A stretch of DNA of 64,000 nt from Defluviitaleaceae bacterium (GCA_009787785.1 WQSR01000009.1:3638-67637), one strand, 5' to 3'. Positions 13,450 through 49,939 are shown, counted from the stretch's first letter. The notes: generated by a model not told the origin, from the sequence alone. Made by a program: numbers and translations.

Positions 13450-13539
13450 AGGTATCCCTCACTCTCATTATTTCATTGGCGCGGTACAAAATAAGCCGCA
13501 GACGGCACTAAAAAAGCGCGTCCGCGCTTTGTTTCGCGG

Positions 13540-13569: not shown

Positions 13570-13625
13570 GAATGTAGTATAAGCGAGATACAGTTGAAAC
13601 ATTTTACCCCGAAGGGACGATATCC

Positions 13626-15041: not shown

Positions 15042-15163
15042 AATATTTTTCGCCCACAGCCGAATAAACTTGCGCTTTCACGCACTATGTAGTATACTTC
15101 CGAAAAACATCCCCCAAATTTATACATATCTTTATTTGCCTTGCGATAAAAATGAGGTGGAAA

Positions 15164-16760: not shown

Positions 16761-16836
16761 GTGCATTCCTCCCAACCCGTCTTGCGTATTGTGTTTTCTC
16801 ATTATACAATATTCACAAAAAAAAGGAGAGGTTTTC

Positions 16837-28873: not shown

Positions 28874-28911
28874 AATATTCACAAATTTTGCAGTGCTTGG
28901 TGGGATACCCT

Positions 28912-32474: not shown

Positions 32475-32652
32475 AAAAAACCCAGAATGTCGGTCCTATA
32501 TTTTGACACCTAGCCTTAGGGCTAGGTGGGTGTCCGCAGCGTGATTTCCGCCCTCCGCTACAAGGCGGCCCGGCGTACCTCACGCATAAATAAGACTCCC
32601 GTTTCACGTCTGTAGGTTCAAAATAATAGGTTGTCGAGCATTCCAGGCCCGT
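32475..32652 (-). ncRNA. Candidate structured small RNA with rod-like, 6S-RNA-like architecture
   Basis: In the minus-strand reading, the 5' and 3' ends pair over about 24 bp. CCUGGAAUG(C)UCG at 32647-32635 pairs with CGACAUUCUGGG at 32492-32481, including 2 G-U pairs. CCUAU(U)AUUUUGA at 32630-32618 pairs with UCAAAAUAUAGG at 32506-32495. The middle is unpaired, there is an apical GCGUGA/UCACGC helix, and the RNA ends in UUUUUUAUUU. A promoter-like TTGCGC-18-TATAAT lies just upstream. Confidence 0.45.
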
Positions 32653-34841: not shown

Positions 34842-35621
34842 ATGGACGCGCAACGTATCGGGCGGCATGAGGCTTTGCTTTTACTTGCGCACATCACCGG
34901 GAAAAATAAATTACAATTGTTATTGGAAGAAAATATACCCGAGGAACAAGCTCGTGTTTTTTTTAATGCCTTGGAGCGGCGCGTGTCGGGGGAGCCGTTG
35001 CAATATATACTGGGGGAATGGGATTTTTACGGGCTGACCTTTAAAGTGGATAAACGCGCCCTGATACCCCGCCCGGAAACAGAACTGCTGGTGGAGGAAG
35101 TGCTGGCATTGAATCCCCTGCGTGTGCTGGATATATGTACAGGCAGTGGGTGCATTGCCGTCTCGCTGGCGGTATTTTTAAAGGATGCGGAAATAACGGC
35201 GGTGGACATCAGCGCGGACGCCCTGGCACTGGCAAGGGAAAACGCCGAATGGCATGGGGTGGCCCACCGGGTACGCTTTGTGCAATCGGATTTGGCCGGG
35301 GGCTTACTCCGGGAGCCGGGGCAGGGGTTCGATGCCATCGTATCCAACCCGCCGTATATCCCTACGGGTGAATTGCACGGCTTGCAAACCGAGGTGCGGG
35401 ATTTTGAGCCACACTTGGCCTTGGACGGCGGTGTGGACGGCATGGACTTGTACCGCAAGCTGCTGCCCCAGGCGAAGGCATTACTACGGCCCGGCGGGGC
35501 ATTATTTTTGGAAATCGGGCCCGGTGGGGTGGGGGAGCTGGCCACCGCCGCAGGGTTCGGGGCTGTACGGATAAAAAAGGATTACTCGGGGCTGGATAGG
35601 GTAGTCATTGCATTCTTATAA
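34842..35621 (+). CDS. prmC: Peptide chain release factor N5-glutamine methyltransferase
   Basis: Start at the ATG at 34842. Motifs GEPLQYILGEWDFYGL, LIPRPETE, DICTGSGCIA and the catalytic NPPY. Confidence 0.9.
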   Translation: MDAQRIGRHEALLLLAHITGKNKLQLLLEENIPEEQARVFFNALERRVSGEPLQYILGEWDFYGLTFKVDKRALIPRPETELLVEEVLALNPLRVLDICTGSGCIAVSLAVFLKDAEITAVDISADALALARENAEWHGVAHRVRFVQSDLAGGLLREPGQGFDAIVSNPPYIPTGELHGLQTEVRDFEPHLALDGGVDGMDLYRKLLPQAKALLRPGGALFLEIGPGGVGELATAAGFGAVRIKKDYSGLDRVVIAFL

Positions 35622-35672
35622 TTTTTTCGCTAAACTGGCTAAAATTTCATATCCACCAAGGGAGAGCGGGCA

Positions 35673-36980
35673 ATGGCTACAGGTGTATTGATGCCGAAGG
35701 CGGGCATATCGGTTGAAAGCTGTATTATCGGCACATGGCACAAACAGCCCGGCGACCCTGTCCAGATGGGTGACATCCTCTTCGATTATGAAACGGACAA
35801 GGCTACCTTTGAGTGCGAGTCTACGGCAGTGGGGCATCTCATTGAAATTTTTTTCCAGAGCGGCGACGAGGTGCCGTGCTTGACGGTTGTGTGCGCCGTG
35901 GGGCAACCGGGCGAGGATGTTTCCGGTTTGAAGACCGGTAGCCCGCCCGTATCCGAACCCGTACCCGCATCTGCACCCGCACCCGTATCCACGCCTTCCA
36001 TAGTTGAGCCTTCCATAGCTGAGACTTCCATAACCGCGCCGCCCGCAGTGCAAGCCGGCTCCGGTATAGTGGGTGCCGTGTCCCCCCGCGCCAGAAAATT
36101 AGCGGAACGCTTGCGGGTGGATTTGCAATATGTCACCCCCACGGGCCCCCGGGGACGCGTCATCGAAAGGGATATCCAGACGGCGGCGCGTACGCTGAAA
36201 ACCGGGGACGGCATCGGCGGCCGCAGGCAGGACGGTTTTATCGGTGGGGCGGGTGCCGCTTCGGGGGTTTCTCTTGCCGCCGGCGCGGGATATACCGACG
36301 AAAAAATGTCCCCCATCCGCAAGGTTATCGCCAAATCCATGCTCAAATCCCTTACGGAAATCGCACAGCTCACCCATGTACATTCCTGCGACGCCACGGT
36401 TTTGCTAAGCCTACGGCGGCGTTTCAAAGATTCCGGCAAAGGTCTTGAGGGTATTTCCCTCAATGACCTTGTTATATTTGCCGTTGCGCGGACACTGGCC
36501 GCCCACCCCGATTTAAACGCCCACTTGGTCAATGGGGATACCTTGCGTAGGTTCAACGGGGTGCATTTGGGCATGGCGGTGGATACGCCCCGGGGCTTGC
36601 TGGTGCCGACGATTTTCAATGCCGACAAAATGAGCCTTTTGCAATTGTCGGCGGCAACAAAGGACGTAGCCGACATGGCGAAATCCGGTAGCATCAGCCC
36701 GGATTTGTTGCAGGGCGCGTCCTTTACCGTATCCAATTTAGGCGCGCTGGGGGTGGAAATGTTCACCCCGGTGATAAATCCGCCCCAGGTGGCGATTTTG
36801 GGTGTGTGCGGACTTTCCCCCAAGGTGAAGGAAGAAAATGGGAAAATTGCGGTGTATCAAAGCATGGGGCTGGCCCTGACTTACGACCACAGGGCCGTGG
36901 ACGGCGCACCCGCCTCGCGGTTTGCCGCCAATCTGGCCAAGAATCTGGAAAATATAGATTTGCTAATGATGTCTTTATAA
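35673..36980 (+). CDS. Dihydrolipoamide acyltransferase (E2) of a 2-oxoacid/acetoin-type dehydrogenase complex
   Basis: 435 aa. One lipoyl domain (ETDKATFE), a Pro/Ala linker, a subunit-binding domain (SPRARKLA...GPRGRV), and a catalytic domain with DHRAVDG. Confidence 0.93.
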   Translation: MATGVLMPKAGISVESCIIGTWHKQPGDPVQMGDILFDYETDKATFECESTAVGHLIEIFFQSGDEVPCLTVVCAVGQPGEDVSGLKTGSPPVSEPVPASAPAPVSTPSIVEPSIAETSITAPPAVQAGSGIVGAVSPRARKLAERLRVDLQYVTPTGPRGRVIERDIQTAARTLKTGDGIGGRRQDGFIGGAGAASGVSLAAGAGYTDEKMSPIRKVIAKSMLKSLTEIAQLTHVHSCDATVLLSLRRRFKDSGKGLEGISLNDLVIFAVARTLAAHPDLNAHLVNGDTLRRFNGVHLGMAVDTPRGLLVPTIFNADKMSLLQLSAATKDVADMAKSGSISPDLLQGASFTVSNLGALGVEMFTPVINPPQVAILGVCGLSPKVKEENGKIAVYQSMGLALTYDHRAVDGAPASRFAANLAKNLENIDLLMMSL

Positions 36981-36993
36981 GAAGGTGAAAGCC

Positions 36994-38364
36994 ATGTCCC
37001 AACGGCATAGCGATGTACTGATTATCGGCGGCGGCCCCGCCGGATATCTGGCCGCAGAAAGAGCGGCCCAGGGCGGCCTGACGGTGACGCTGTTTGAGAA
37101 ACGCGCCATGGGTGGCGTGTGCTTGAATGAAGGATGCATCCCCACGAAAACCCTTTTGCACTCCGCGAAAATCTACGAAACCGCCTTAAAAGGCGGCGCG
37201 TATGGCGTCACCGCCGACAATGTAAGGCTGGACCACAACGCCGTAGTCACCCGCAAGGACAAGGTAGTGAAAATGCTTGTCTCCGGTGTGGAAGGCAAGA
37301 TGAAGGCGGGCAAAATATCCGTAATAAAATCAACTGCGGTTATAAACGAAAAAAACGGAGCCCATTTTATCGTGGAAGGGGCGGGGGAAAAATACAGCGG
37401 GCGGTATATATTGCTTGCCGCAGGTTCAGAGCCCATGATTCCTCCCATACCCGGCTTGAAGGAAGGGCTCGAAAAGGGCTTCGCCGTAACCAGCCGCGAA
37501 ATCCTCGAACTGCGGGAAATACCTGAAAAGTTAACGGTTATCGGCGCGGGGGTGGTGGGCTTGGAAATGGCGGCCTACTTCGCCACGGCAGGGTCGAAAG
37601 TCAGCGTCATTGAAATGACGGAAAAGATTGCCGGCTACACCGACGCGGAAATCGCCAGCATCCTGTTGAAGGACATGCAACATAGAGGCATTGATTTCAA
37701 GCTGGGGTGCCAAGTGACCGGATTGTCCCCCGGCTCCGTTACCTATGAGAAAAACGGCAAGGCCGAAAAACTGTCAACCGACTGTGTGCTCATCGCCATA
37801 GGCCGCCGCCCCACGATTCAAAACTTGGGCTTCGAGAAATTAAACATCCACACAGAGCGGGGCGCAATCCCCACGGACAATCAACTGCGCACCAATGTTT
37901 CCGGTGTATACGCCATAGGCGACATCAACGGCAAAAGTATGCTGGCCCATACCGCCTACCGGGAGGCCGAGGTCGCCGTCAATCACATTTTGGGTAAAAA
38001 GGACACCATGCGCTATGACGCGATTCCGGCGGTGATTTACACCGCCCCCGAGGTCGCCGGGGTGGGGGAAACGGAGGAATCCGCCCGGGAAAAGGGACTG
38101 GCCTTTTCCGTGAAAAAATTATCCACGCGCTATTCCGGGCGTTTTGTGGCGGAGAACGACAAAGCCGACGGCTTATGTAAGCTTCTTATCGAAAACGGTA
38201 CGGAACGTCTCATCGGCGCGCATTTGATTGGCCCCTATGCCTCGGAAATGATTTACGGGGCGTCTATGATGATTGAGTCCCGCTGGCCGGTGGGCGATTT
38301 GAAGGAACTGGTCTTCCCCCATCCCACGGTGAGTGAAATTATACGTGAAACATTCTTTAATTAA
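36994..38364 (+). CDS. lpd: Dihydrolipoyl dehydrogenase (E3)
   Basis: The ATG at 36994 follows AGAAGGTGA. FAD motif IIGGGPAGY, redox disulfide GGVCLNEGCIPTK, and the C-terminal interface HPT.SE. Confidence 0.95.
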   Translation: MSQRHSDVLIIGGGPAGYLAAERAAQGGLTVTLFEKRAMGGVCLNEGCIPTKTLLHSAKIYETALKGGAYGVTADNVRLDHNAVVTRKDKVVKMLVSGVEGKMKAGKISVIKSTAVINEKNGAHFIVEGAGEKYSGRYILLAAGSEPMIPPIPGLKEGLEKGFAVTSREILELREIPEKLTVIGAGVVGLEMAAYFATAGSKVSVIEMTEKIAGYTDAEIASILLKDMQHRGIDFKLGCQVTGLSPGSVTYEKNGKAEKLSTDCVLIAIGRRPTIQNLGFEKLNIHTERGAIPTDNQLRTNVSGVYAIGDINGKSMLAHTAYREAEVAVNHILGKKDTMRYDAIPAVIYTAPEVAGVGETEESAREKGLAFSVKKLSTRYSGRFVAENDKADGLCKLLIENGTERLIGAHLIGPYASEMIYGASMMIESRWPVGDLKELVFPHPTVSEIIRETFFN

Positions 38365-38385
38365 TTCCCAAAAGGAGTAAAAATC

Positions 38386-40851
38386 ATGCCCAAATCCCTG
38401 CACATCAGTCCTGCCGAGTTGAAAAAAACCGGTAAAATTACCTTCAAGGACATTCCCGTAAACAGCTACAAAAAAACCGCAAAGCAAGCGCGGAAGGATT
38501 TTTCCGATGCGGAGCTGGTGCGGATTTACCGCGATATTACGATACTGCGCGAGTTTGAGCATATGCTCAACCAGATAAAAACCCAGGGTGTGTACAGCGG
38601 CATCGAGACCCAATACCCCGGCCCCGCCCATTTGTCTTTGGGGCAGGAGGCCGCCGCCGTGGGCCAGGCGTATCTGCTGGACAAGGATGACTTCATCTTC
38701 GGTAGCCACCGCAGTCACAGCGAAATTCTGGCGAAATCCCTGTCCTGCATCGAAAAGCTAAGCGACAAAGAACTCATGGAAATCATGGAGAATTTCCTGG
38801 GTGGGCGCATATTGAAGACCCTGACGAAAATATACAAGCATTCCTCCGTGAAGGAGCTGGCCATTACCTTCATTATATATGGCACGCTGACGGAGATTTT
38901 CGCCAGGGAGAACGGCTTCCATATGGGGCTTGGCGGCTCTATGCACGCCTTTTTCCTGCCCTTCGGCGTGTACCCCAACAACGCCATTGTGGGCGGCTCG
39001 GGGCCGGTGTCCATCGGCGGCGCGTTGTACAAAAAATGCAACAATAAGAAGGGCATCGTGGTGTGTAATATCGGCGACGGCTCTTTGGGATGCGGGCCTG
39101 TGTGGGAAGCCTTGAATTTCGCCGCCATGGGGCAGTTTGATACCCTGTGGAAGGATAAGCCCGGCGGCCTTCCCATTATTTTTAATGTTTTTAATAACGG
39201 CTACGGCATGGGTGGCCAAACCAGCGGCGAAACCATGGCCTATGATATGCTGGCGCGCCTGGGCGCGGGCGTGAACGCGGAGCAGATGCACGCCGAGCGG
39301 GTGTGGGGCAACGACCCGCTGGCGGTAATTGACGCTTACAAACGCAAAAAAGCCATCATTAAGAAAAACGGCGGCCCCGTGCTGTTGGATGTGGTCACTT
39401 ACCGTCATTCCGGGCATTCCACCTCGGACCAAAACGCCTACCGTTCCAAGGAGGAAATGGACGAATGGTTCGCCCTGGACCCGTGCACGGTTTTCCGCAA
39501 TGAACTGGTGGAGGCGGGGGTCGCCGCCGACGGAGTTTTCGACGACATCTGGACGCAAACCCGGGAACGCATGAAGCAAATTTGCCAATGGGCCTCCAGC
39601 GAAGAGATTTCCCCCTACATGGATTTGAAAAAAGACCGCGCCGCCGTGGAACGCATTATGTTTTCGAATACGAAAATCCCCGTCCTTGGAAAGGAAAAGC
39701 CGGTTGTGCTGATTCCCAAGGAGGAATGCTCACGGGTGAAGCAAATCGCGGGCAAGGAGCGGTTCGCCCTTAAAAATGGCAAGCCCGTGAGCAAGATGAA
39801 ATGCTACAACTACCGCGACGCCATTTTTGAGCCCATTTTGGATAAATGCTACGAGGATTCCTCGTTGATACTCTATGGTGAGGACGTGCGGGACTGGGGC
39901 GGGGCCTTCGCGGTATACCGCGGCCTGGCCGAGGTTTTGCCCCATTCCAGATTGTTCAACGCGCCCATTTCCGAGGCCGCCATTGTGGGCAGTGCCGTGG
40001 GCTATGGGCTTTGCGAGGGCCGTGCGGTGGTAGAGCTTATGTATTGCGATTTCATCGGTAGGGCAGGGGACGAGATATTCAATCAGCTTTCGAAATGGCA
40101 ATCCATGAGCGCGGGTATTTTAAAGATGCCTGTGGTATTGCGGGTTTCCGTTGGGTCGAAATACGGTGCCCAGCATTCCCAGGACTGGACCGCGCTGTGC
40201 GCCCACATTCCGGGGTTGAAGATTTGCTTCCCCGCCACGCCCTATGAGGCCAAGGGCCTGATGCAAACCGCGCTGAACGGCACCGACCCCGTTGTATTTT
40301 TCGAGAGCCAGCGGCTCTATGATATGGGCGAGCAATTCCAGGAAGGCGGCGTTCCCGCCGAGCCCTACGAGCTGGAAATCGGCGACGTGAACGTGGTGCG
40401 CACGGGCAAGGACATTACCATTTTGACCATCGGCGCGACGCTGTACAAAGCCGTGGAAGCCGCAGAGATTTTGAAGGATACATTCGGCATGGAAGCGGAT
40501 ATTATCAACCTGTACAGCCTTGTCCCCCTGGACTATACGAAAATCGTGGCGTCGGTGAAGAAGACCGGGAAGCTGGTGCTGGCCTCCGATGCCTGTGCGC
40601 GGGGCTCCTTCCTGAGCGACATTGCGCGGAATGTAACCGAGCTGTGCTTCGACGATTTGGACGCGCCGCCGGTGGTGGTGGGTGCGAAAAACTGGATAAC
40701 CCCGCCCTTTGAGTTCGATGAATTTTTCTTCCCCCAGGCGGGCTGGATTCTGGACGCGATAAACGAAAGCATCATCCCGCTACCCGGCCATGTACCGGTT
40801 GAAAGCTTTACCGTGATGGAGCAACTACGCAAGGCTAAACTGGGGGTTTAG
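38386..40851 (+). CDS. Fused E1 alpha-beta thiamine-diphosphate-dependent dehydrogenase component
   Basis: 821 aa. The N-terminal half is E1-alpha-like (HLSLGQEA...GDGS...N.YG). The C-terminal half is E1-beta/transketolase-pyrimidine-like (FNAPISEAAIVG...) with a transketolase_C domain. Confidence 0.88.
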   Translation: MPKSLHISPAELKKTGKITFKDIPVNSYKKTAKQARKDFSDAELVRIYRDITILREFEHMLNQIKTQGVYSGIETQYPGPAHLSLGQEAAAVGQAYLLDKDDFIFGSHRSHSEILAKSLSCIEKLSDKELMEIMENFLGGRILKTLTKIYKHSSVKELAITFIIYGTLTEIFARENGFHMGLGGSMHAFFLPFGVYPNNAIVGGSGPVSIGGALYKKCNNKKGIVVCNIGDGSLGCGPVWEALNFAAMGQFDTLWKDKPGGLPIIFNVFNNGYGMGGQTSGETMAYDMLARLGAGVNAEQMHAERVWGNDPLAVIDAYKRKKAIIKKNGGPVLLDVVTYRHSGHSTSDQNAYRSKEEMDEWFALDPCTVFRNELVEAGVAADGVFDDIWTQTRERMKQICQWASSEEISPYMDLKKDRAAVERIMFSNTKIPVLGKEKPVVLIPKEECSRVKQIAGKERFALKNGKPVSKMKCYNYRDAIFEPILDKCYEDSSLILYGEDVRDWGGAFAVYRGLAEVLPHSRLFNAPISEAAIVGSAVGYGLCEGRAVVELMYCDFIGRAGDEIFNQLSKWQSMSAGILKMPVVLRVSVGSKYGAQHSQDWTALCAHIPGLKICFPATPYEAKGLMQTALNGTDPVVFFESQRLYDMGEQFQEGGVPAEPYELEIGDVNVVRTGKDITILTIGATLYKAVEAAEILKDTFGMEADIINLYSLVPLDYTKIVASVKKTGKLVLASDACARGSFLSDIARNVTELCFDDLDAPPVVVGAKNWITPPFEFDEFFFPQAGWILDAINESIIPLPGHVPVESFTVMEQLRKAKLGV

Positions 40852-40852
40852 T

Positions 40853-41923
40853 ATGCTGACGCAAATTATTCCGGCGTTGCGGATGCTGTATTCCCTGGAA
40901 ATGGGGCGGCTGGCGACGGCGACATTCCATGCCGGGGCGCAGGACGGGGAGCTGACCCTCAGCGAGGAGAACAATTTTTCGGATGTAGACATAAAAAAAT
41001 CATTTCAGGATTATTGCAAATCCGGGGGCGTACCCCCCCAGCGTGTTGTAGTGGGGATCATGGGCGTTGTCGAATTGGCTTGCCACGCATCCCCCGGAGG
41101 ACGCCTGGCCGGGAAAATCGCCATCGTTACGGGCAGTGCCCAGGGCTTCGGCAAGGGCATCGCGGAAGCCTTGGCCGCCGAAGGCGTGTATGTGGTCATC
41201 GCTGACATCAACGCCGGGGGCGCGGCGGAATGTGCCGCCGGGCTGAATGAAAAATATGGGGCGTACCGTTCCCTTCCCGTTGCGGTCAACGTGACCGACG
41301 AAGCCTCCGTGGAAAACATGGTGCGCGAAACCGTCTTGGCCTATGGCGGCTTGGATATTTTGATTTCCAACGCGGGGGTAGTGCGCTCGGGCAATTTATT
41401 TGAGTTGACCAAGGAAAATTTCGAATTTGTGACGGCGGTGAACTATACCGCCTTCTTTTTATGCGCCAAGCACGCCGCCGCTGTGATGAAACGCCAGCAC
41501 GACATCACCCCGGCTTTTCCCGCCGATATCATTGAAATAAATTCAAAATCCGGCCTGGAGGGTAGTAATAAGAATTTTGCCTACGCGGGGAGCAAGTTCG
41601 GCGGGATTGGCCTGACCCAGTCCTTCGCCATGGAATGCATCGAGTATGGCATAAAGGTCAACGCCGTGTGCCCGGGGAATTTCCTGGACGGCCCCCTGTG
41701 GGCGGACCCGGTGAACGGGCTGTTCAAGCAATATCTGGACGCGGGCAAGGTGAAGGGCGCGAAGACCATCGCCGATGTGCGCAAATACTACGAAAGCCGC
41801 GTGCCCATGGGGCGCGGCTGTGAAATCGCCGACGTGGCCCGCGCCATCTTCTACGCGGTGGAGCAACAATACGAAACGGGCCAGGCCATTCCCGTGACGG
41901 GGGGGCAGGTGATGCTGAAATGA
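40853..41923 (+). CDS. Short-chain dehydrogenase/reductase (sorbitol-6-phosphate-dehydrogenase-like) with an N-terminal extension of about 95 aa
   Basis: SDR core: GKIAIVTGSAQGFG, NAG, and YAGSK as the YxxxK catalytic motif. The ATG at 40853 lies 1 nt after the E1 stop. The extension has no recognised family. Confidence 0.8.
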   Translation: MLTQIIPALRMLYSLEMGRLATATFHAGAQDGELTLSEENNFSDVDIKKSFQDYCKSGGVPPQRVVVGIMGVVELACHASPGGRLAGKIAIVTGSAQGFGKGIAEALAAEGVYVVIADINAGGAAECAAGLNEKYGAYRSLPVAVNVTDEASVENMVRETVLAYGGLDILISNAGVVRSGNLFELTKENFEFVTAVNYTAFFLCAKHAAAVMKRQHDITPAFPADIIEINSKSGLEGSNKNFAYAGSKFGGIGLTQSFAMECIEYGIKVNAVCPGNFLDGPLWADPVNGLFKQYLDAGKVKGAKTIADVRKYYESRVPMGRGCEIADVARAIFYAVEQQYETGQAIPVTGGQVMLK

Positions 41924-43068
41924 TAAACAATCACATCCACACGATTTATTCCTTTTCGCCCTACACCCCAGCGACGGCGGTGCGCCTTGCCAAGGAAAAC
42001 GGATTGCAAACCGCCGGCATCATGGACCACGACAGTGTGGCTGGTTTGCGGGAATTTATCCGGGCCGGGCAGGAAGAGGGCATCGGCGTGACGGTGGGCT
42101 TCGAGTTGCGCACCTGCTTCAAGGGCACGCCCTTTGCGGGGCGGCGCATTAACAATCCCGACCAGGATTCGGTGGCGTATTTGGCCATGCACGGCATCCC
42201 CCATGATAAAATCGACGCGGCCGACGCCTTTTTGAAGCCGTACCGGGAAGCGCGGAATATCCGCAACCGGAGGATGACCGAGAAGCTGGATGCCTTCGTC
42301 CGAGGGGCGGGGCTGGCAATGGATTTCGACAAGGACGTGTTGCCCCTTTCCCAGCATGAAAAAGGCGGCTCAGTTACCGAGCGGCATATCCTCTTCGCGC
42401 TGGCGGAAAAAACAATGGGGCAGGTGGCCCCCGGCCCGGCTACCATTGCTTTCTTGAAAGACCATTTCGGCATCGAAGCAAGGGGAAAAAACCTGCAAAT
42501 GCTCAGTGACTCCGGCAACGCGTGGTACGCCTATTATTTGCTGGGCGTGCTGAAAGCGGATATGATGGCGCATTTTTACCTTGACGCGGACGCAGAATTG
42601 CCAGATTATAAGAATTTTATTTCCCTGGCCGAAGAAATCGGCGCGATTCCCGCCTATGCCTATTTGGGTGATGTGGGCGACTCCATTACAGGAGATAAAA
42701 AAACGCAGAAATTTGAAGATGAATTTTTGGATGAACTCATTATTTTTTTGAAGGAAGCCGGATTTAGAGCCATTACCTACATGCCGGCAAGGAACACAAG
42801 TGAACAACTTGCGCGTTTAATTACACTATGCGAGCAACATGAAATATTCGAAATTTGTGGCGAGGACATCAATTCCCCCTTCCAGCCCTTCGTGTGCAAG
42901 GAGCTCGAAAGGGCGGAATACAAGCATCTTGTGGACGCCGCCTGGGCGTTGATTGGCCATGAGAAGGCGGGCTTCGGCGCGGGGTTGTTTTCCCAAGGGG
43001 CGATACACAATTATCCCGCCCTGAAGGAACGCGTAAAACATTTTGCAAATATGGGGAGAGCGCGATGA
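41920..43068 (+). CDS. PHP-domain (polymerase/histidinol-phosphatase-like) metal-dependent phosphoesterase
   Basis: 382 aa. N-terminal NNHIHTIYS His motif and GIMDHD. ATGA overlap with the SDR stop. Confidence 0.7.
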   Translation: MINNHIHTIYSFSPYTPATAVRLAKENGLQTAGIMDHDSVAGLREFIRAGQEEGIGVTVGFELRTCFKGTPFAGRRINNPDQDSVAYLAMHGIPHDKIDAADAFLKPYREARNIRNRRMTEKLDAFVRGAGLAMDFDKDVLPLSQHEKGGSVTERHILFALAEKTMGQVAPGPATIAFLKDHFGIEARGKNLQMLSDSGNAWYAYYLLGVLKADMMAHFYLDADAELPDYKNFISLAEEIGAIPAYAYLGDVGDSITGDKKTQKFEDEFLDELIIFLKEAGFRAITYMPARNTSEQLARLITLCEQHEIFEICGEDINSPFQPFVCKELERAEYKHLVDAAWALIGHEKAGFGAGLFSQGAIHNYPALKERVKHFANMGRAR

Positions 43069-44321
43069 AAACAAAAGCGGTTCGATTGTATGGCGTGGAC
43101 GACTTGCGGCTGGAGGAATTTGAACTACCTCCCGTAGGCGCGGAGGAATTGCTGGTGAAAATCGTCGCGGATTCCGCGTGTATGTCCACCTACAAAGCGG
43201 TAAAGCAGGGAAGCGCGCACAAGCGCGTGCCGGACAATGTCCATGAAAATCCTGTCATTGTGGGCCATGAGTTCTGCGGGGAAATAGTGGAAGTGGGGCA
43301 AAATCTGGCCGGACAATATCAGCCCGGACAGAAATTCACCATGCAACCGGGGATGAAGGGCACCATGGAGGCGGCGGGATATTCCTTCCCGCACCTCGGC
43401 GGCAATATGACCCACGGGATTATCCCCAAATGTTATTTTGACCAGAGCTGTGTATTATTATATGAAGGGGAGGGTTTTTTCCACGGCTCACTGACGGAGC
43501 CCCTCTCCTGCGTGATTGGGGCCACCCGCGCCAATTATCACACCCGCCAAGGGGAATATATCCACGACATGGATATAAAAGAAGGCGGAAATATGGCCAT
43601 CTTGGGGGGTTGCGGGCCCATGGGCTTTGCCCATATTGATTATATTTTGCACCGCGACCGGAAGCCGGGCCTGCTGGTGGTTACGGATGTGAAGCAGGAT
43701 AATCTTGACGCGGCGGCGGCGGCTCTTACTGTGGCGAATGCCTTAGAAAACGGCATAAAGCTGGTTTATTTTAATCCCGCGTCCTCCCCTGACCCGGTGG
43801 GAGAGCTCATGAAGCTGACCCATGGGCGCGGGTACGATGACGTTTTCGTATTTTTCCCCCTGGCTGGGCTGGTGGAGCAAGCCGACGCGATACTGGCCAA
43901 CGATGGATGCCTTAATTTTTTTGCCGGGCCAGCGGATACGGCGTTTTCCGCGAAATTGAATTTCTACAATGTGCATTACAACGCCACCCATGTGGTGGGC
44001 ACCAACGCGGGCAACATCGACGACATGAAAGAAGCCTTGGCCATGGCGGCGGCGGGGAAAATTAACCCCGCGGTGCTGGTCTCCCACGTGGGGGGGCTGG
44101 ACGCGGTTGCGGAAACGATTCTAAACCTGCCCGGCATACCCGGCTTCAAAAAGTTAATCTACAATGAAATTTCCATGCCTCTCACCGCGATAAAAGATTT
44201 TGCGGATAAAGGGGAAAAATGTCCGTTTTATAAAACATTAGCGGATATATGCAAGCAAAATAATGGCCTTTGGAGTGTTGAAGCGGAAAAATATCTATTG
44301 GAACACGCGCCAAGGCTGTAA
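43065..44321 (+). CDS. Zinc-type medium-chain dehydrogenase/reductase (L-sorbose-1-phosphate-reductase-like)
   Basis: 418 aa. Motifs CMSTYK...GHEFCGEIVEVG and the Rossmann motif GGCGPMG. ATGA overlap upstream. Confidence 0.8.
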   Translation: MKTKAVRLYGVDDLRLEEFELPPVGAEELLVKIVADSACMSTYKAVKQGSAHKRVPDNVHENPVIVGHEFCGEIVEVGQNLAGQYQPGQKFTMQPGMKGTMEAAGYSFPHLGGNMTHGIIPKCYFDQSCVLLYEGEGFFHGSLTEPLSCVIGATRANYHTRQGEYIHDMDIKEGGNMAILGGCGPMGFAHIDYILHRDRKPGLLVVTDVKQDNLDAAAAALTVANALENGIKLVYFNPASSPDPVGELMKLTHGRGYDDVFVFFPLAGLVEQADAILANDGCLNFFAGPADTAFSAKLNFYNVHYNATHVVGTNAGNIDDMKEALAMAAAGKINPAVLVSHVGGLDAVAETILNLPGIPGFKKLIYNEISMPLTAIKDFADKGEKCPFYKTLADICKQNNGLWSVEAEKYLLEHAPRL

Positions 44322-46207
44322 TGAACGCGGATAATATTATCTTCATCGAAATGGAAAGCCGTGACGCCGCTTTCCATTTTTCGCTTGAGGAATATTTAAT
44401 GCAGGGGCATGTCCACGGCACAGCGGATATCATGATGCTCTGGCAGGTTGACCCGTGTGTGATGCTGGGCAACAATCAAATTGCCCAGGCCGAAGTGGAT
44501 ACGCATTTCGCACAGCGCGAGGGGATTCAGCTTACGCGCCGTTCCAGCGGGGGAGGGGCGATTTACGCCGACGGGGGGACGTTATTTTATACCTGGATTT
44601 CGTGCCACGCTTCACCGGAATCCGCTAAGGAACAATTCGCGGATTCCATCGTGGACGCATTGACCGGCATGGGCATCCCCGCGAAAAAGGAAGGCCGCAA
44701 TGACATCTGCGTGGAGGGGAAAAAAATCACGGGCATGGCCCAATACGCAAGGCACGGCAGGATTTGCACCCACGGTTCCCTGCTATATGACACAGATTTG
44801 GAAAAGCTTGCCTGTGTCCTGCAACCGGACAATAAAAAATTTCAGGGGAAGGCTGTGCGCTCGGTGCGCAGTCGGGTGGGGAATGTAAAGGATATCGCGG
44901 GCTTGACCCGCAACTCCCTAAGCGAAACTACCATCGGCAAATTCAAAACGAAATTAAAACACAAATTATTGCACGAAAAGAAATTTATCGAATATTCCCT
45001 GACAAAAAATGACATTCACGAAATAAACAAAATAAATAAAAACAAATACGCGAACCCTGTTTGGACCTTCGGTCACGCGCCGAATTTTACTTTTCACAAC
45101 AGCAAGCGTTTCCCCGGCGGCACAGTGGGGATATATATAAATGTAGAAAAAGGCGTGGTGCAGGATTGCGCCATTCGCGGGGATTTTTTGGGCATCGCCC
45201 CCATAAATGAACTGGAGCGGCACTTCATAGGCAAGCCCTTCCGGTACGACGCCCTTTGCGACAGCATCAACGGCGTAGAGCTCCAGCCCTACCTGGGCAA
45301 TATCAGCCGGGACGAATTTTTATCCCTCCACGCACCGGAGCGCAAGCCGGACTGGCTACGCCTTCGCCATGTTGAAAACCCCAATCAGGAATATGTTGAA
45401 AAAATTTTGCGCGAAAATAACCTGAACACCGTATGCCGCGAGGCCAACTGTCCCAACCAAGGAGAATGCTTCTCCCAAAAAACCGCGACTTTTATTATTA
45501 TGGGGACACACTGCACGCGGAGCTGTCGTTTTTGTAATATTCAAAATGGCCCGCCCAAGCCCCTCGACTCCGGCGAGCCCCAACGCGTGGCCAATGCGAT
45601 AAAATCGCTGGAATTGAAATACGCGGTCATCACCTCGGTGACGCGGGACGACTTGCCCGACGGCGGCGCGGCCCATTTCGCCAAAACCATCGCGGAAATC
45701 CGCAAGGCCACCCCGGAAACCCTCATCGAGGTGCTGATACCCGATTTCGCCGGGGATTTCGCCGCCCTCAAAACCGTAACGGACGCCACCCCCGACGTAA
45801 TCAGCCACAACATGGAGACCGTGGCCTCCCTCTACGATATTGTCCGTCCCCAAGCCGGGTACCGCCGTTCCCTGGAAATAATCCACAAAATAAAGCAGTT
45901 AAATCCCCGTATCCGCACAAAAAGCGGCATCATGCTGGGCATGGGCGAAACCGACGAAGAAATCCACGCCGTTATGCGCGACCTGCGGGAGGCGGACTGT
46001 GCAATTTTGACCATCGGGCAATATCTCCCGCCTTCTGACCGCCACCACCGTGTGGCGGAATATGTAACGCCGCAAAAATTCGAGGCATGGGGCGTGGCGG
46101 CCCGGGAAGCCGGCTTCGCCTTCGTGGCGTCCGCGCCCCTCGTCAGGAGCTCCTTCCGCGCAGGTGAGGCGGGCAAACTACTCCCACTAAACGGAGGCAT
46201 ACAATGA
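44321..46207 (+). CDS. Fusion protein: lipoate-protein ligase A (LplA) N-terminal half and lipoyl synthase (LipA) C-terminal half
   Basis: 628 aa. Residues about 1-330 are LplA-like (RRSSGGGAIYADGG...KITGMAQ). Residues about 335-628 are LipA, with the auxiliary cluster CREANCPNQGEC, the radical-SAM motif CTRSCRFC, and the C-terminal RSSF. Confidence 0.85.
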   Translation: MNADNIIFIEMESRDAAFHFSLEEYLMQGHVHGTADIMMLWQVDPCVMLGNNQIAQAEVDTHFAQREGIQLTRRSSGGGAIYADGGTLFYTWISCHASPESAKEQFADSIVDALTGMGIPAKKEGRNDICVEGKKITGMAQYARHGRICTHGSLLYDTDLEKLACVLQPDNKKFQGKAVRSVRSRVGNVKDIAGLTRNSLSETTIGKFKTKLKHKLLHEKKFIEYSLTKNDIHEINKINKNKYANPVWTFGHAPNFTFHNSKRFPGGTVGIYINVEKGVVQDCAIRGDFLGIAPINELERHFIGKPFRYDALCDSINGVELQPYLGNISRDEFLSLHAPERKPDWLRLRHVENPNQEYVEKILRENNLNTVCREANCPNQGECFSQKTATFIIMGTHCTRSCRFCNIQNGPPKPLDSGEPQRVANAIKSLELKYAVITSVTRDDLPDGGAAHFAKTIAEIRKATPETLIEVLIPDFAGDFAALKTVTDATPDVISHNMETVASLYDIVRPQAGYRRSLEIIHKIKQLNPRIRTKSGIMLGMGETDEEIHAVMRDLREADCAILTIGQYLPPSDRHHRVAEYVTPQKFEAWGVAAREAGFAFVASAPLVRSSFRAGEAGKLLPLNGGIQ

Positions 46208-49200
46208 AGATAAGCGTGAAAAAAGGGCTTGTAAGCTTTGTGTACGGCCTGATTTTTGGGGTTGGCAGTCCCGTTCCGGGGGTCAGTGCGGGAACGGTGG
46301 CGATTTTGCTCAATGTGTATGACAAATTTTTCAATTCAATTAACAAGGCCGCCGCGAAGAAGAATTTGCTCCCCATTATTATTTTTTTGCTGGGGTGGAT
46401 TGCGGGTCTTTTAAGCATCAGCAATGTGATGCTGTTTCTCTTTGAAAACCACGGAAAATTAATTTCCTTTACCTTCATCGGGCTGGTGTCGGGGTGCATC
46501 CCCATGATTTATCGAAAGGCAAAGGCAGGCCCCGGGAAAATCTGGCACGGCGTTGCCTTCCTGGCGGCACTGGGATTTATGTTTTTCCTTGCCTTCTACG
46601 GCGGGGATTTAACGACAAACAATACCCTCGAACAACTGGGGGGTGTGACGCCAACCCTGCTGATTTGGCTTTTTGTCGCGTGTTTTTTCAGCTCCATGGC
46701 CATGCTCATCCCCGGGGTGGGCGGGTCGCTGATGATGATTGTATTCGGCATTTATACGATTTACATTGAAGCGGTGGCCACCTTTGATATTGTTGTACTG
46801 GGTGTTTTTGTCGTCAGCATGGTCTTGGGGGTGCTGGCGGGCATTTTAATTACGAAAAAAATATTGGAGCGTTTCCCCAAAATGCTGTACTGCGCGATTT
46901 TGGGTTTAATCCTTGGCTCTTTGTTGCTGTTGTACCCCGGATTTACCTTTGGCTTGGAGGGCATGTTGGCCATCGCGCTGGCCGGTGTGGGATTTGGGTT
47001 TGCCTACTGGCTTTCGAAAAAGGAGGCGCGGGAGCCGGAAATCAGCCTTCCCGAAGCCTCGCCTCGTGAAATTGCCCATCAAAACCTCGCCCGTCAGGCC
47101 GCCGCCGAAGGCATTGTACTGTTGGAAAACGACGGTACGCTACCCATCCCGCCTGGCCGGATTGCGCTATACGGCGCGGGGGCGGCGGCCACGATTAAAG
47201 GCGGGACGGGCAGTGGTGAGGTCAACGAGCGGCATTCCGTGACTATCCGCGAGGGGCTCGTCCGTGCCGGATTTGAAATCACCACCCCGGCGTGGCTGGA
47301 CGAATATGTACACCTGCTGGCGGCGAAAAAGAAGCAGTTTTACCGCAAATTCTTTAGAAAGGCGTGGGTTGCGGCCTTCGGCGACGACGACTTGCGCATT
47401 AACATCATGGCGGATTTCTTCCGTTATCCCGTGGGGCCGCTGATAGCAGATATTTCCGACGATGCCGATACCTGCATTTACGTTATCGCAAGGCAAGCCG
47501 GGGAATGCTCCGACCGCAGTTTGGAAAAATTCGATTACCTCCTGGAACCTGACGAAATAGCTAACATAAAAACGGTGGCCGCGCACTACCGCAAGACCAT
47601 CATCGCCATCAACGTGGGCGGCTACATGGATTTGACCCCCTTGGATGAAATGGAAGGCATTAACGCGGTGGTCTTCTTTTGCCAGCAGGGCATGGAGGGC
47701 GGGAATGCATTTGCCGATGTTATAACCGGAAAAATTTCGCCTTCGGGATGCTTGTCCGGCACATGGACGAAAAAATATGACGATATTCCTTTCGCCCGAG
47801 AATACAGTTACTTCAAAGGGGAGCGCGTACAGAACAAAATAAAGGAATACTATAAGGAGGGCATCTATGTCGGCTACCGTTATTTTGACAGTTTTGGGGT
47901 GGTGCCCAGATATGAATTTGGATATGGCCTGACCTATTCAGAGTTCAAAATCGAATACGTCCATTCAACCGTGGAGAAAACAAAAATAGTAACGTCAGTA
48001 CGTGTAATCAACACCGGGAAATACGCCGGGAAAAAAGTCGTCCAACTCTACGCAAGCTGTCCCCACGGGCGGCTCACCCGGGAATACCAGAGCCTTGCCG
48101 CCTTCGGAAAAACCCGCACCCTTCAACCCGGCGAAGCCGAAACCATCGCCATGTCCTTTGATTTTGCCGCCTTGGCGGGATACGACACGCCGTCCTCCTC
48201 GTTTTTGCTGGAGGCGGGGGAGTATATTTTGCGCCTGGGTTCTTCCTCCAGACAAGCGGAGGCCGTGGCGGTGGCCACCCTGGACAAGCGCGTAATCACC
48301 GAGCAATGCAAGCCCATTTGCCCCCTGGCAGACATCCTGGATGAAATAATCCCCCCAGCCGGCACCCGCGAAGAAATGTGCGTTACAACCGAAAAACTAA
48401 CCATCCGCGCCGATGATTTTTTCACAAAAAAAATTACCTACGACTTGCCGGAGCCCCAATACAGCCCGAAGGTACAGGAATGGATGAAATCCCTCACCTT
48501 GGACGACATGATGAAATGCGTGGTGGGAACGGGATTTTTCTCCTCCAGCAGAAAAGGGCTGACCGCTCCCGGCGCGGCGGGGAGGACGACGCGGGATTTT
48601 GTGGACAAGGGCATCCCGGAGGTGATTTTTTGCGACGGCCCGGCGGGGCTTAGGTTGCGCAGAACATCGGTTATAACCCCCTCGGGCAAAATCAAGCCCG
48701 CAGACGCCATGCTGGAAATGCTGAACCATATCCCCGCCATATTCAAGAAATGGGTCTTCGCCGACCCCAGCAAAGGCCGGCCCTCTTACCAATTCGCCAC
48801 GGCCTTCCCCGTGGGCATGGCCATAGCCCAGACCTGGAGCGTGGATTTGCTGGAACGCTTCGGTCAAGCCATAGGCACGGAAATGAAGGAATTTGGCGGG
48901 AATTACTGGCTGGCCCCCGGCATGAACATCCACCGCAACCCCCTGTGCGGCCGCAATTACGAATACTACAGCGAAGACCCGCTACTCTCTGGCAAGCTGG
49001 CCGCCGCGGCAACCATTGGCTTGCAAAGCTTTCCCGGATGCGCCGCCACCATCAAGCACTTTGTGGCCAACAACCAGGAAACCTGGCGCAACCATTCCGA
49101 CAGCGTCGTCTCCGAACGCGCCCTGCGCGAAATTTACCTGCGCGGCTTTAAAACCGCCGTCACGGAAGGCGGCGCGAAGTCCGTCATGACCAGCTACAAC

Positions 49201-49545
49201 CTCGTAAACGGCACCTACACCCCCAACAGTCACGACTTGTGCACAAAAGTCCTGCGCTGTGAATGGGGCTTCAACGGCGTGGTCATGACCGACTGGCTCT
49301 CCACCGGAAAAAATATGGCAAAGAACGGACTGGCCCTGAAAAGCGGCAACGATTTAATCATGCCGGGCGGGAAGGGGTACCTGAAGAAATTGCAAGCAGA
49401 TTTCGCGAAGGGCGAGGTATCGGAAGCAGACATTCGCCGCTGTTGCGGCAATATATTGGAAGCTATTCACACGGAGGAAAAATATGGGAGAAACAGCGCA
49501 GTCTTTGAGAGAAAAAGGCATATGCCCAACTTGTTACAATCGTGA
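46204..49545 (+). CDS. Fusion protein: DUF368 polytopic membrane domain and permuted family-3 glycoside hydrolase
   Basis: 1113 aa. Residues 1 to about 280 carry two DUF368 repeats (VPGVSAGT and IPGVGGSL) and about 8 TM segments. The rest is GH3 in the order sandwich domain, Fn3-like domain, then barrel. It contains KHFVANNQE and the nucleophile context GVVMTDW. ATGA overlap with the upstream stop. Confidence 0.85.
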   Translation: MKISVKKGLVSFVYGLIFGVGSPVPGVSAGTVAILLNVYDKFFNSINKAAAKKNLLPIIIFLLGWIAGLLSISNVMLFLFENHGKLISFTFIGLVSGCIPMIYRKAKAGPGKIWHGVAFLAALGFMFFLAFYGGDLTTNNTLEQLGGVTPTLLIWLFVACFFSSMAMLIPGVGGSLMMIVFGIYTIYIEAVATFDIVVLGVFVVSMVLGVLAGILITKKILERFPKMLYCAILGLILGSLLLLYPGFTFGLEGMLAIALAGVGFGFAYWLSKKEAREPEISLPEASPREIAHQNLARQAAAEGIVLLENDGTLPIPPGRIALYGAGAAATIKGGTGSGEVNERHSVTIREGLVRAGFEITTPAWLDEYVHLLAAKKKQFYRKFFRKAWVAAFGDDDLRINIMADFFRYPVGPLIADISDDADTCIYVIARQAGECSDRSLEKFDYLLEPDEIANIKTVAAHYRKTIIAINVGGYMDLTPLDEMEGINAVVFFCQQGMEGGNAFADVITGKISPSGCLSGTWTKKYDDIPFAREYSYFKGERVQNKIKEYYKEGIYVGYRYFDSFGVVPRYEFGYGLTYSEFKIEYVHSTVEKTKIVTSVRVINTGKYAGKKVVQLYASCPHGRLTREYQSLAAFGKTRTLQPGEAETIAMSFDFAALAGYDTPSSSFLLEAGEYILRLGSSSRQAEAVAVATLDKRVITEQCKPICPLADILDEIIPPAGTREEMCVTTEKLTIRADDFFTKKITYDLPEPQYSPKVQEWMKSLTLDDMMKCVVGTGFFSSSRKGLTAPGAAGRTTRDFVDKGIPEVIFCDGPAGLRLRRTSVITPSGKIKPADAMLEMLNHIPAIFKKWVFADPSKGRPSYQFATAFPVGMAIAQTWSVDLLERFGQAIGTEMKEFGGNYWLAPGMNIHRNPLCGRNYEYYSEDPLLSGKLAAAATIGLQSFPGCAATIKHFVANNQETWRNHSDSVVSERALREIYLRGFKTAVTEGGAKSVMTSYNLVNGTYTPNSHDLCTKVLRCEWGFNGVVMTDWLSTGKNMAKNGLALKSGNDLIMPGGKGYLKKLQADFAKGEVSEADIRRCCGNILEAIHTEEKYGRNSAVFERKRHMPNLLQS

Positions 49546-49939
49546 ACATGGCGGCATTTATGAGGACATAGCCGAAAGAATGTTATATGAAGATGATTTA
49601 TTAGCATGTTTTTTTGAAATCAAACCCCGCCAAGTTGGGCACACGATTATTTTATTAAGAGAACATTATCATGATATGTCTTTTATACCGGATGATGTAT
49701 GCGCGGCAGTTTATGTGTTTGCTAAAAAAGTTATGAATGTATTAAAAGAAGTATTACATGTCGAGAGGGTTTATTTGTGTACAATGTGTGATACAAAAGC
49801 GAACCATTTTCATGTTCAGTTGATTCCAAGACACCCTGATACAATTCATGGTTCAGTTAATTTTGTAAAAGAACGCATGGATTATGTAGAAAACAAAACA
49901 CACATAAGCATGATTAGAGAAAAGTTAAAAAATGACTAA
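49484..49939 (+). CDS. HIT-family (histidine triad) protein
   Basis: 151 aa. GGAGGAAAAAT RBS. Triad variant NHFHVQLIP. Overlaps the GH3 3' end by 62 nt. AT-rich. Confidence 0.75.
   Translation: MGETAQSLREKGICPTCYNREHGGIYEDIAERMLYEDDLLACFFEIKPRQVGHTIILLREHYHDMSFIPDDVCAAVYVFAKKVMNVLKEVLHVERVYLCTMCDTKANHFHVQLIPRHPDTIHGSVNFVKERMDYVENKTHISMIREKLKND

Follow-up and report, generated by a model that had tools for sequence, protein, structure and literature searches.

Closest described systems and the locus

Acetoin dehydrogenase (Aco) systems couple a thiamine-diphosphate (TPP)-dependent E1 to a lipoyl E2 and an E3, and in the anaerobe P. carbinolicus the acoABCSL cluster places a lipoyl synthase and a butanediol dehydrogenase beside the aco genes (PMC3543383). 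In rhamnose catabolism, RhaEW is a rhamnulose-1-phosphate aldolase/L-lactaldehyde dehydrogenase whose short-chain dehydrogenase (SDR) half has been shown experimentally to yield L-lactate; DeoR-type RhaR regulators are established for this sugar, and some rha regulons include lactate dehydrogenases (PMC3870299). Here, we describe a gene run from a Defluviitaleaceae bacterium that shares features with both. It lies at positions 35673-49545 of a 64,000-nucleotide stretch (GCA_009787785.1 WQSR01000009.1:3638-67637), called the window below, and ORF calling gives eight + strand ORFs, all head to tail. Genes 1-7 (35673-46207) are a conserved, widespread functional module of anaerobic Clostridia, whereas gene 8 is a chance neighbour that is translationally coupled here and lies outside the conserved module. 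With a probability of roughly 45%, the seven genes would form a 6-deoxyhexose-linked branch that ends in an acetoin-dehydrogenase-style cleavage to acetyl-CoA. The eight genes are as follows.

35673-36980, +: E2 dihydrolipoyl acyltransferase, 435 aa (profile matches, motifs)
36985-38364, +: E3 dihydrolipoyl dehydrogenase, 459 aa, GTG start (TIGR01350, motif)
38386-40851, +: fused E1 alpha-beta TPP enzyme, 821 aa (Pfam domains)
40853-41923, +: SrlD-like SDR, 356 aa (profile matches)
41920-43068, +: putative metal-dependent phosphoesterase of the PHP family (TrpH/Cv1693 type), 382 aa, containing a helical insert (Pfam, fold)
43065-44321, +: zinc-type medium-chain (polyol-type) dehydrogenase (MDR), 418 aa (profile matches)
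44321-46207, +: LplA-LipA fusion, 628 aa, lipoate/octanoate-protein ligase plus radical-SAM lipoyl synthase
46204-49545, +: PopT(DUF368)-GH3 fusion (gene 8), 1113 aa (Pfam)

The module is like the Aco system in its TPP-dependent E1, lipoyl E2 and E3, and like the P. carbinolicus cluster in belonging to an anaerobe and in having its own lipoyl synthase and secondary-alcohol dehydrogenases. A lipoyl synthase beside an Aco cluster in an anaerobe was thus already known (PMC3543383). An earlier reading of the window from sequence alone (the sequence-only reading) had known of no described pathway that joins a lipoyl-dependent C-C cleaving complex to SorD/SorE-like dehydrogenases, a PHP phosphatase and a glycosidase. 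Unlike in Aco systems, the E1 is fused and carries insertions (30-34% identity to split E1s), the order is E2-E3-E1, the clostridial E2 is of the classical 2-oxoacid_dh type, and DeoR/SorC regulators, sugar isomerases, kinases, aldolases and PHP are found nearby. With the RhaEW pathway (PMC3870299), the window's relatives have in common RhaA, rhamnulokinase, DeoR and an aldolase-SDR fusion built in the same way; however, their fusion does not reach the RhaEW cutoff (292 < 567) and resembles SrlD more closely in its SDR half, and the aldolase half is deleted in the window. The classical RhaEW pathway has no PHP, MDR or lipoyl complex.

Three further systems offer partial parallels. In L-sorbose catabolism, SorE (an MDR) is a sorbose-1-phosphate reductase and SorD (an SDR) a glucitol-6-phosphate dehydrogenase; a zinc MDR and an SrlD-like SDR could likewise move the carbonyl of a ketose phosphate from the phosphate end to the opposite one. 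The likeness is an analogy of logic only; the module has no sorbose, sorbitol or phosphotransferase system (PTS) genes nearby, and its SDR is below the SrlD cutoff (245 < 307). Pyruvate dehydrogenase (PDH) and branched-chain (BCKDH) complexes share the E1/E2/E3 architecture, an E3 that passes its model and an E2 nearest to acetyltransferases, but differ in that the module E1 falls below all curated PDH and OGDH cutoffs, sits in a sugar-phosphate setting and has orthologues paired with an AcoC-type E2. The Lsr pathway (LsrK, LsrR, LsrG, LsrF) converts a phosphorylated 1-deoxy (methyl-keto) pentose to acetyl-CoA and triose phosphate. It is comparable in its SorC-type regulator (LsrR), its FGGY kinase (LsrK) and the formation of these two products from phospho-autoinducer-2 (phospho-AI-2), but its enzymes are of wholly different kinds: LsrF is thiolase-like with a class I aldolase fold, and the pathway uses neither TPP nor a lipoyl cofactor.

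Conservation of genes 1-7 in relatives

Relatives were viewed through the flanking DNA at anchored loci (cited by number, e.g. L090). From at least 598 E1 matches and at least 561 PHP matches, the best 80 each were kept as the locus sets. The main E1-anchored scan was run by tblastn with the window proteins (E ≤ 1e-10, at least 50% coverage). Later locus scans used E ≤ 1e-8 to 1e-15 and at least 40% to at least 50% coverage, and divergent partners may be missed at these settings.

The fused E1 was found in at least 598 species (pattern scan, one genome per species). Its best 120 protein-database matches are 69-100% identical, and at the 80 genome loci kept the identity is 61-77%. Every locus with enough upstream DNA (64/64) has E2 immediately before E1 and in the same orientation. 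The order is E2-E3-E1 in 53 of these 64 loci, and the remaining 11 have E2-E1 without E3. The gene order that the sequence-only reading had flagged as inverted is a fixed trait of the fused-E1 family.

At the 35 well-flanked E1 loci (at least 8 kb on both sides), LplA was present in 18, MDR in 15, SDR and PHP in 10 each and LipA in 3; two or more of SDR, PHP and MDR were present in 11. As an internal negative control, PrmC, bactofilin, HIT, GNAT, PopT and GH3 were each found at 0 of the 35. The reverse test started from PHP, a family with more than 7900 matches, all named only "PHP domain-containing protein": of the 17 PHP-anchored loci of at least 18 kb, 10 hold E1, 13 hold SDR and 12 hold MDR. 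Both E1 and PHP are also encoded in Ruminococcaceae bacterium OttesenSCG-928-L11. By this conservation test, with gene 8 and the other neighbours at 0, the grouping of genes 1-7 is non-random.

The order seen in the window, E2-E3-E1-(Ald)SDR-PHP-MDR-LplA-LipA, recurs at L096 and L097/L089, where E1 is 86-88% identical. Nine further contigs hold the same gene set in shuffled orders (gene calls, Pfam labels). Several partners are also found fused. PHP and MDR form one protein of 815 aa in L081, and class II aldolase-SDR fusions of 634-671 aa occur in six loci (L007, L051, L086, L089, L090, L091). The LplA-LipA fusion is shared by the window and L096, while L050, L069 and L079 have separate LplA_cat and LipA pairs, and in L001 LipA is accompanied by a full-length LplA. 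The co-occurrence of the fused E1 with SDR, PHP, MDR and lipoylation genes in many clostridial lineages bears out the neighbourhood that had been predicted from the window, and the recurrence of LplA/LipA genes beside the E1 family agrees with the dedicated lipoylation proposed at the same time.

The lipoyl complex and its orthologues

E2 has a single lipoyl domain, with K43 as the lysine of its TDKA motif, followed in the description by an E3-binding domain and by a catalytic domain of the classical PF00198 (2-oxoacid_dh) type with DHRAVDG at 405. Its nearest solved relatives are PDH acetyltransferases, and it matches the AcoC model NF011457 in the lipoyl part only (63.7 < cutoff 307). A classical E2 is also used by some Gram-positive Aco systems, so the E2 type does not exclude an Aco-like function. 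E3 is above the curated cutoff of TIGR01350 (462 > 408.8 bits) and has the redox motif CLNEGC at 46.

E1 contains PF00676, PF02779 and PF02780, i.e. the TPP-binding E1_dh, transketolase Pyr and C-terminal domains, with GDG at 230-232 and NN at 270-271 as its motif. It was placed relative to PDH, BCKDH and Aco by proxies, namely curated-model cutoffs, Protein Data Bank (PDB) matches and annotated plasmid matches. The PDH models TIGR03182/NF006667 match below cutoff in both halves (alpha: 190.7 < 393.85; beta: 224.8 < 321). E1 is under every curated NCBIfam PDH and 2-oxoglutarate dehydrogenase (OGDH) cutoff, and its best NCBIfam matches are still PDH models. E1-alpha matches in the PDB reach only E = 1e-25 to 1e-18, and E1 is roughly equidistant from the solved PDH and BCKDH E1s. 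Relative to split E1s, to which it is ~30-34% identical, it has N-terminal and internal insertions. By these proxies, E1 is not tightly grouped with the ordinary PDH and BCKDH enzymes (about 30% identity to split E1s, all curated NCBIfam cutoffs missed), a grouping that the sequence-only reading had named as a refutation.

A tblastn search against plasmids returned E1 orthologues from Rhizobium, Agrobacterium and Pleomorphomonas that are 51-53% identical over 97% of the length; all other plasmid matches are ≤34% identical. These loci, from plant-associated bacteria, are L092 (R. johnstonii 3841 pRL8, 12001-17649), L093 and L094. Downstream of E1, the clusters encode a 78-aa lipoyl protein, an alpha/beta hydrolase and a SorC-type sugar-phosphate regulator, and between them the first two match both halves of the AcoC model NF011457. 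The clusters further hold xylB-like or PfkB kinases, sugar ABC transporters, a DalD-like polyol dehydrogenase or a psicose-3-epimerase-like protein and, in Agrobacterium, lipA. A paper on pRL8 rhizosphere transcriptomics makes no mention of the E1 cluster. These alpha-proteobacteria already have a housekeeping PDH. Together with the AcoC-type E2 and the sugar-gene setting, this argues for a reaction of the acetoin dehydrogenase type (non-decarboxylating, acetyl-transferring) on a sugar-derived ketol. The Aco-style cleavage put forward for the window is thus favoured by the orthologues, as far as sequence comparison can tell.

A more distant complex is encoded on a Brevibacillus laterosporus plasmid (L176, 4995-10943). 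It is a classical split E1alpha-E1beta-E2-E3 operon, only 33% identical to the window E1, and is flanked by a PTS system on one side and a sugar regulator of the SorC type on the other. Sugar-phosphate-linked lipoyl complexes may be a broader theme.

Sugar genes at related loci

The sequence-only reading had pointed to a sorbitol or sorbose context, but relatives instead carry RhaA, FucI, rhamnulokinase, class II aldolase and GH95, i.e. genes of L-rhamnose and L-fucose use. A DeoR-family regulator is present at 54 of 88 loci. RhaA occurs together with rhamnulokinase at L090, L122, L124 and L132 and alone at L096 and L108; a class II aldolase accompanies nearly all RhaA loci. In L090, the kinase passes the rhamnulokinase cutoff (534 > 528), and RhaA and the kinase are divergent from a DeoR-E2-E3-E1-(split transketolase)-LplA-Ald/SDR-PHP-MDR run. 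A rhamnulokinase-like kinase alone was found in 7 more loci. On the fucose side, L163 has a 599-aa L-fucose isomerase (FucI) after SDR-PHP-kinase, and a GH95 fucosidase is present in L006 and L051, with a weaker match in L077 (33% identity).

A third group of genes concerns methylthioribose and 5-deoxyribose. MtnA (396 bits > cutoff 271) and an MtnB/aldolase-like protein lie within the module of L084/L085, a purine nucleoside phosphorylase is located a few kb upstream in L084, and MtnA follows MDR in L099. To judge from the enzymes encoded, the theme common to the Rha, Fuc and Mtn loci is omega-deoxy-2-ketose-1-phosphates.

Other sugar pathways were considered and rejected. For a sorbitol/sorbose pathway, no PTS, sorbose or glucitol genes were found at any locus, and it was kept as a chemical analogy only. 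Myo-inositol catabolism was suggested by a weak MDR-IolM match and by GFO_IDH_MocA and AP_endonuc_2 neighbours (L013, L068, L075, L081), but these leads are too sporadic and no iol genes were present. The D-apiose/apulose transketolase pathway and AI-2 (Lsr) processing were suggested by the split transketolase of L090 and by SorC/xylB, and no recurring support genes were found for them.

Three loci that have the E2-E3-E1 core only (L014, L016, L022) carry a different sugar gene set downstream of E1: an archaeal-type triose-phosphate isomerase, a SIS-domain protein, UPF0047, an FGGY kinase, a FucI_C-like isomerase and an FSA-type aldolase, with an additional MFS transporter in L016 and GH4 in L022. 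This is a second, distinct sugar context for the same complex. In the window itself, a GFO_IDH_MocA oxidoreductase (16759-17970, +) is translationally coupled to a xylose-isomerase-like TIM-barrel protein (17967-18932, +). The oxidoreductase is 59-62% identical to the gene right after the module (after LplA) in L075, L081 and L082, and it may be a detached accessory of the same pathway.

Accessory enzymes

The best model for the SDR is the sorbitol-6-phosphate dehydrogenase SrlD (NF009050), below cutoff (245.5 < 307). It matches PDB entry 5o3z with E = 2.5e-49, has the TGxxxGxG and YxxxK motifs and also matches BudC/acetoin reductase models (133-143 bits). The RhaEW model TIGR02632 gives 163 (< 567.75), with no Aldolase_II match; full aldolase-SDR fusions in relatives are also below this cutoff (292 < 567.75).

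The SDR domain and its counterpart in the L086 aldolase-SDR fusion share 67% identity. A multiple alignment places residues 2-83 of the window protein on the inter-domain region of such fusions; this extension shares the motif PALRMLYS with the L089, L090 and L091 fusions at 40-43% identity. The catalytic aldolase half (~235 aa) is missing from the window SDR, and intermediate truncations of aldolase-SDR were found in L087, L074 and L096. Judging by these alignments, the N-terminal extension is a remnant of a RhaEW-like aldolase-SDR fusion and a vestige rather than a new domain. The sequence-only reading had correctly noticed an extension here; its length is ~83 aa instead of about 95 aa, and its origin, which had been called unexplained, lies in such a fusion.

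PF02811 matches the PHP protein at 32.6 (> 26.4) over the N-terminal 65 aa only. An AF2 model from 30 homologues has a pLDDT of 93.9, and its best fold matches are 3e0f, 2yb1 and 9etk (target-normalised TM 0.71-0.73), so that the model resembles BAD_1165, the pAp phosphatase Cv1693 and RNase AM. Conserved residues are H5, H7, D36, H37, D38, E62, H91 and D316, but D-I-N stands in place of D-x-H as the last motif. On this structural model, a phosphoesterase function is plausible.

The MDR has the GHE and GxGxxG motifs and a weak match to (R,R)-butanediol dehydrogenase. Its homologues near E1 in relatives are 52-61% identical. Both halves of LplA-LipA pass their equivalogs (TIGR00545: 332 > 280; TIGR00510: 359 > 310), while the fusion model NF053790 gives 682 against a cutoff of 800. 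The CX3CX2C and CX4CX5C motifs are both present in the LipA half.

Gene packing and gene 8

ORF calling, Pfam and NCBIfam reproduced the eight ORFs with the coordinates, strand, gaps, overlaps and domain content reported earlier, and the catalytic motifs of E1, E2, E3, SDR, MDR and LipA are intact. Read from the sequence, the intergenic gaps of genes 1-4 are 4, 21 and 1 nt; ATGA overlaps follow at 41920, 43065 and 46204 and a TAATG overlap at 44321. One further feature lies upstream.

35593-35622, +: candidate promoter-like site 51 nt ahead of the E2 start, TGGATA-18-TATAAT, 10/12 match

The frequency of promoter-like sites in the window is not above that of shuffled sequence, which makes this weak evidence. 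A consensus scan inside the eight-gene run gave no signal above shuffled background, and no terminator stands out there. The co-directional run exceeds eight genes, with bactofilin and PrmC upstream and HIT and GNAT downstream, so packing alone does not define an operon. SigF and SpoIIAB genes upstream of the run mark the source as a spore-forming Firmicute, and tight packing by itself is common in Firmicutes. Of the 14-kb eight-gene operon that had been proposed, the packing stands and conservation supports genes 1-7 as a non-random set, but gene 8 is no member.

DUF368 is the PopT polyprenyl-phosphate transporter family in current naming. In gene 8, PF04018 scores 95.7 (> 26) over profile positions 9-276 of 277, and the PopT equivalog NF052563 gives 102 against a cutoff of 400. 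The GH3 part is circularly permuted, with GH3_C at 304-558, Fn3 at 612-682 and GH3_N at 854-1080; PF00933, PF01915 and PF14310 were all found, with KHF at 951 and TDW at 1029. Both families are thus complete in gene 8, and they are joined only there among the matches listed: no second PopT-GH3 fusion was present among the best 120 matches from 5.8 billion proteins. The other GH3 homologues are stand-alone proteins of ~820-920 aa (mostly ~830) that cover 71-75% of the query. Stand-alone enzymes share 50-63% identity with the GH3 part, including 62% for one of 837 aa. In one stand-alone enzyme, residue 13 is already aligned with residue 284 of the gene 8 protein, so a signal peptide would not fit in front.

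PopT and GH3 were found at none of the 80 E1-anchored and none of the 80 PHP-anchored loci, and they are absent even where the relatives' E1 is 86-88% identical. At L096, the seven genes are followed by an opposite-strand aldolase, RhaA and GH10, and at L089 by PFK. The neighbourhood of one stand-alone GH3 homologue is unrelated to the module. The glycosidase that the sequence-only reading had counted in therefore drops out of the module (0/160 related loci). The domain junction of gene 8 lies near residue 272, where a perfect Shine-Dalgarno-like AAGGAGG is present at 47020-47026; no in-frame ATG, GTG or TTG follows it at the junction (47010-47060). Gene 8 may be a recent fusion of adjacent genes for a transporter and a cytoplasmic permuted GH3, or an assembly error. 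At its 3' end, the HIT-family ORF as listed (49484-49939, +) overlaps the GH3 gene by 62 nt, and its true start is probably downstream.

Proposed pathway and rival explanations

Functional statements on the module are drawn from gene context. In the deoxyhexose branch proposed above, the fused E1alphabeta would bind TPP and cleave the substrate, and a two-carbon acyl group, most likely acetyl, would pass from E1 to the single lipoyl domain of E2. E2 would then move the acyl group to CoA, and E3 would re-oxidise dihydrolipoamide with NAD+. LplA-LipA would supply the lipoyl cofactor in a host that probably has few other lipoylated proteins. SDR, MDR and PHP would prepare the substrate from L-rhamnose or L-fucose via rhamnulose- or fuculose-1-phosphate. 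SDR and MDR might shift the carbonyl to the carbon beside the terminal methyl by SorE/SorD logic (C2 reduction, then C5 oxidation); alternatively, they might act on a C3 aldolase product. Either path would give a methyl ketol, CH3-CO-CHOH-R, which E1 would split as acetoin dehydrogenase splits acetoin, with acetyl-CoA, an aldose (phosphate) and NADH as products. Cleavage between C4 and C5 would erase the sole stereocentre separating fuculose from rhamnulose, which would explain one module serving both sugars.

A more specific version is that the fused-E1 complex is an undescribed deoxy-ketose-phosphate dehydrogenase (acetyl-transferring) that splits 1-deoxy-2-ketose phosphates into acetyl-CoA and an aldose phosphate. 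These substrates would come from fuculose-, rhamnulose- or 5-deoxyribulose-1-phosphate by MDR/SDR carbonyl relocation. We regard this version as doubtful. Full-text searches found no description of the module in the literature. The self-contained catabolic module envisaged from the window sequence is partly supported: genes 1-7 stay together, and the glycoside hydrolysis step and the sorbitol/sorbose lead drop out.

Several observations weigh against the deoxyhexose branch. RhaA, FucI, the kinase, the aldolase and DeoR are all missing from the 64-kb window, and Rha/Fuc genes were found at 6 of the 17 long PHP-anchored loci and at 2 of the 17 E1-anchored loci with the module. About 70% of E1 loci have only the regulator, LplA and E2-E3-E1, without SDR, PHP or MDR nearby; hence, the complex may take a more general substrate. 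The locus sets are skewed to close relatives because they are the best 80 of longer match lists. PHP is among the most tightly linked genes, yet no proposed route needs a phosphatase. Finally, the aldolase at RhaA loci and the RhaEW-like descent of the SDR point to lactaldehyde, lactate and pyruvate rather than to deoxyketose cleavage.

This last route, the main rival, can be drawn out in full. An aldolase would make dihydroxyacetone phosphate (DHAP) and L-lactaldehyde, the SDR would act as RhaW to give L-lactate, lactate would be oxidised to pyruvate, perhaps by the MDR, and the complex would be a clostridial NAD-dependent PDH that ends this RhaEW-type pathway with acetyl-CoA and CO2. It would account for an SDR derived from a RhaEW-kind aldolase-SDR fusion, for the aldolase at nearly all RhaA loci, for the PDH acetyltransferases and PDH models that are the best matches of E2 and (in NCBIfam) of E1, and for the many loci that hold a regulator, LplA and E2-E3-E1 only, as a general PDH might. 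RhaEW does yield L-lactate, and some rha regulons reach lactate dehydrogenases (PMC3870299). We nevertheless consider the route unlikely, as E1 is far under the PDH cutoffs and ~30% identical to split PDH/BCKDH E1s, the SDR is nearer SrlD (245 bits) than RhaW (163 bits), and PHP would have no role. Moreover, we know of no MDR that acts as a lactate dehydrogenase. The alpha-proteobacterial orthologues (51-53%) also speak against a PDH, as they pair with an AcoC-type E2 in sugar-kinase clusters. The same E2 would fit a conventional aco operon in which SDR and MDR are butanediol dehydrogenases that differ in stereospecificity and in which lipoylation genes are included, the arrangement for which P. 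carbinolicus acoABCSL, with its lipoyl synthase and butanediol dehydrogenase, is a precedent (PMC3543383). The SDR matches to BudC/acetoin reductase (133-143 bits) and the weak match of the MDR to (R,R)-butanediol dehydrogenase point the same way. Acetoin or 2,3-butanediol as the substrate is still improbable: the regulators are sugar-phosphate sensors of the DeoR or SorC type, the genes nearby encode sugar isomerases, sugar kinases, aldolases, glycosidases and transporters for sugars, and the best SDR match is a sugar-phosphate dehydrogenase. In addition, the tightly linked PHP would again have no role, and neither AcoR nor AcoX was seen.

By-products of S-adenosylmethionine (SAM) use are a further candidate, with the module processing 5-deoxyribulose-1-phosphate or methylthioribulose-1-phosphate (from 5'-deoxyadenosine and methylthioadenosine, MTA). 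Carbonyl relocation and Aco-style cleavage would give acetyl-CoA (or methylthioacetyl-CoA) and glyceraldehyde-3-phosphate, as an alternative to the DHAP shunt. This salvage is a special case of the deoxyhexose-branch chemistry, with a standard product, glyceraldehyde-3-phosphate, and it would explain MtnA and the MtnB/aldolase-like protein in L084/L085, the purine nucleoside phosphorylase in L084 and MtnA in L099. As the general function it is decidedly improbable, because these are three loci only, with two independent contexts (L084 and L085 have the same E1 protein), and Rha/Fuc genes are several times more frequent. The original eight-gene scheme, in which a membrane-anchored GH3 frees the sugar that the same operon oxidises and cleaves, can draw on the 4-nt ATGA overlap between LplA-LipA and PopT-GH3 and on a run within which no terminator stands out. 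It is very improbable and largely refuted by the missing conservation, with GH3 and PopT in 0 of 160 related loci, including the relatives with 86-88% E1 identity. The fusion is single among the matches listed and has a fossil ribosome-binding site at its junction, other close GH3 homologues stand alone at ~830 aa, and the one context examined among them is unrelated. To our knowledge, GH3 enzymes are not rhamnosidases or fucosidases.

Other features of the window

A 6S RNA (RF00013, 68 bits) lies at 32475-32652 (-), between a xylose-isomerase-like gene (31650-32471) and SigF/SpoIIAB. A cobalamin riboswitch (RF00174, 92 bits) was found at 10354-10583 (-), upstream of minus-strand genes at ~9065-10207 and below. 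The gene at 28888-30075 (+) encodes an aldo/keto reductase joined to a 4Fe-4S dicluster domain; the next one, at 30446-31636, encodes an ABC ATPase whose C-terminus is MazE-like.

Implications

For gut anaerobes, the fucose and rhamnose contained in mucin, pectin and algal polymers are major substrates; by textbook accounts, the C3 half of these sugars ends up as 1,2-propanediol under anaerobic conditions. What would be new here, at somewhat less than even odds, is the recruitment of an Aco/PDH-type lipoyl complex to deoxy-sugar phosphate catabolism; the lipoylation genes alongside are not new in themselves. Even if the complex is only a PDH, the module explains lipoylation genes in strict anaerobes. 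It also gives context to families named only "PHP domain-containing protein" or "thiamine pyrophosphate-dependent enzyme".

If the deoxyhexose branch is real, it would be a new fermentation branch in which the deoxy end goes to acetyl-CoA, with a different balance of ATP, H2 and products. It would concern hundreds of uncultured Clostridia and add a new reaction type to the 2-oxoacid/acetoin dehydrogenase superfamily. If the more doubtful, specific version holds and the complex is a deoxy-ketose-phosphate dehydrogenase, it would, with an AcoC-type E2, also serve plant-associated Rhizobiaceae. In that case, Clostridia of the gut, rumen and termite gut would recover the full carbon and ATP from fucose and rhamnose, and neither 1,2-propanediol excretion nor a B12 microcompartment would be needed.

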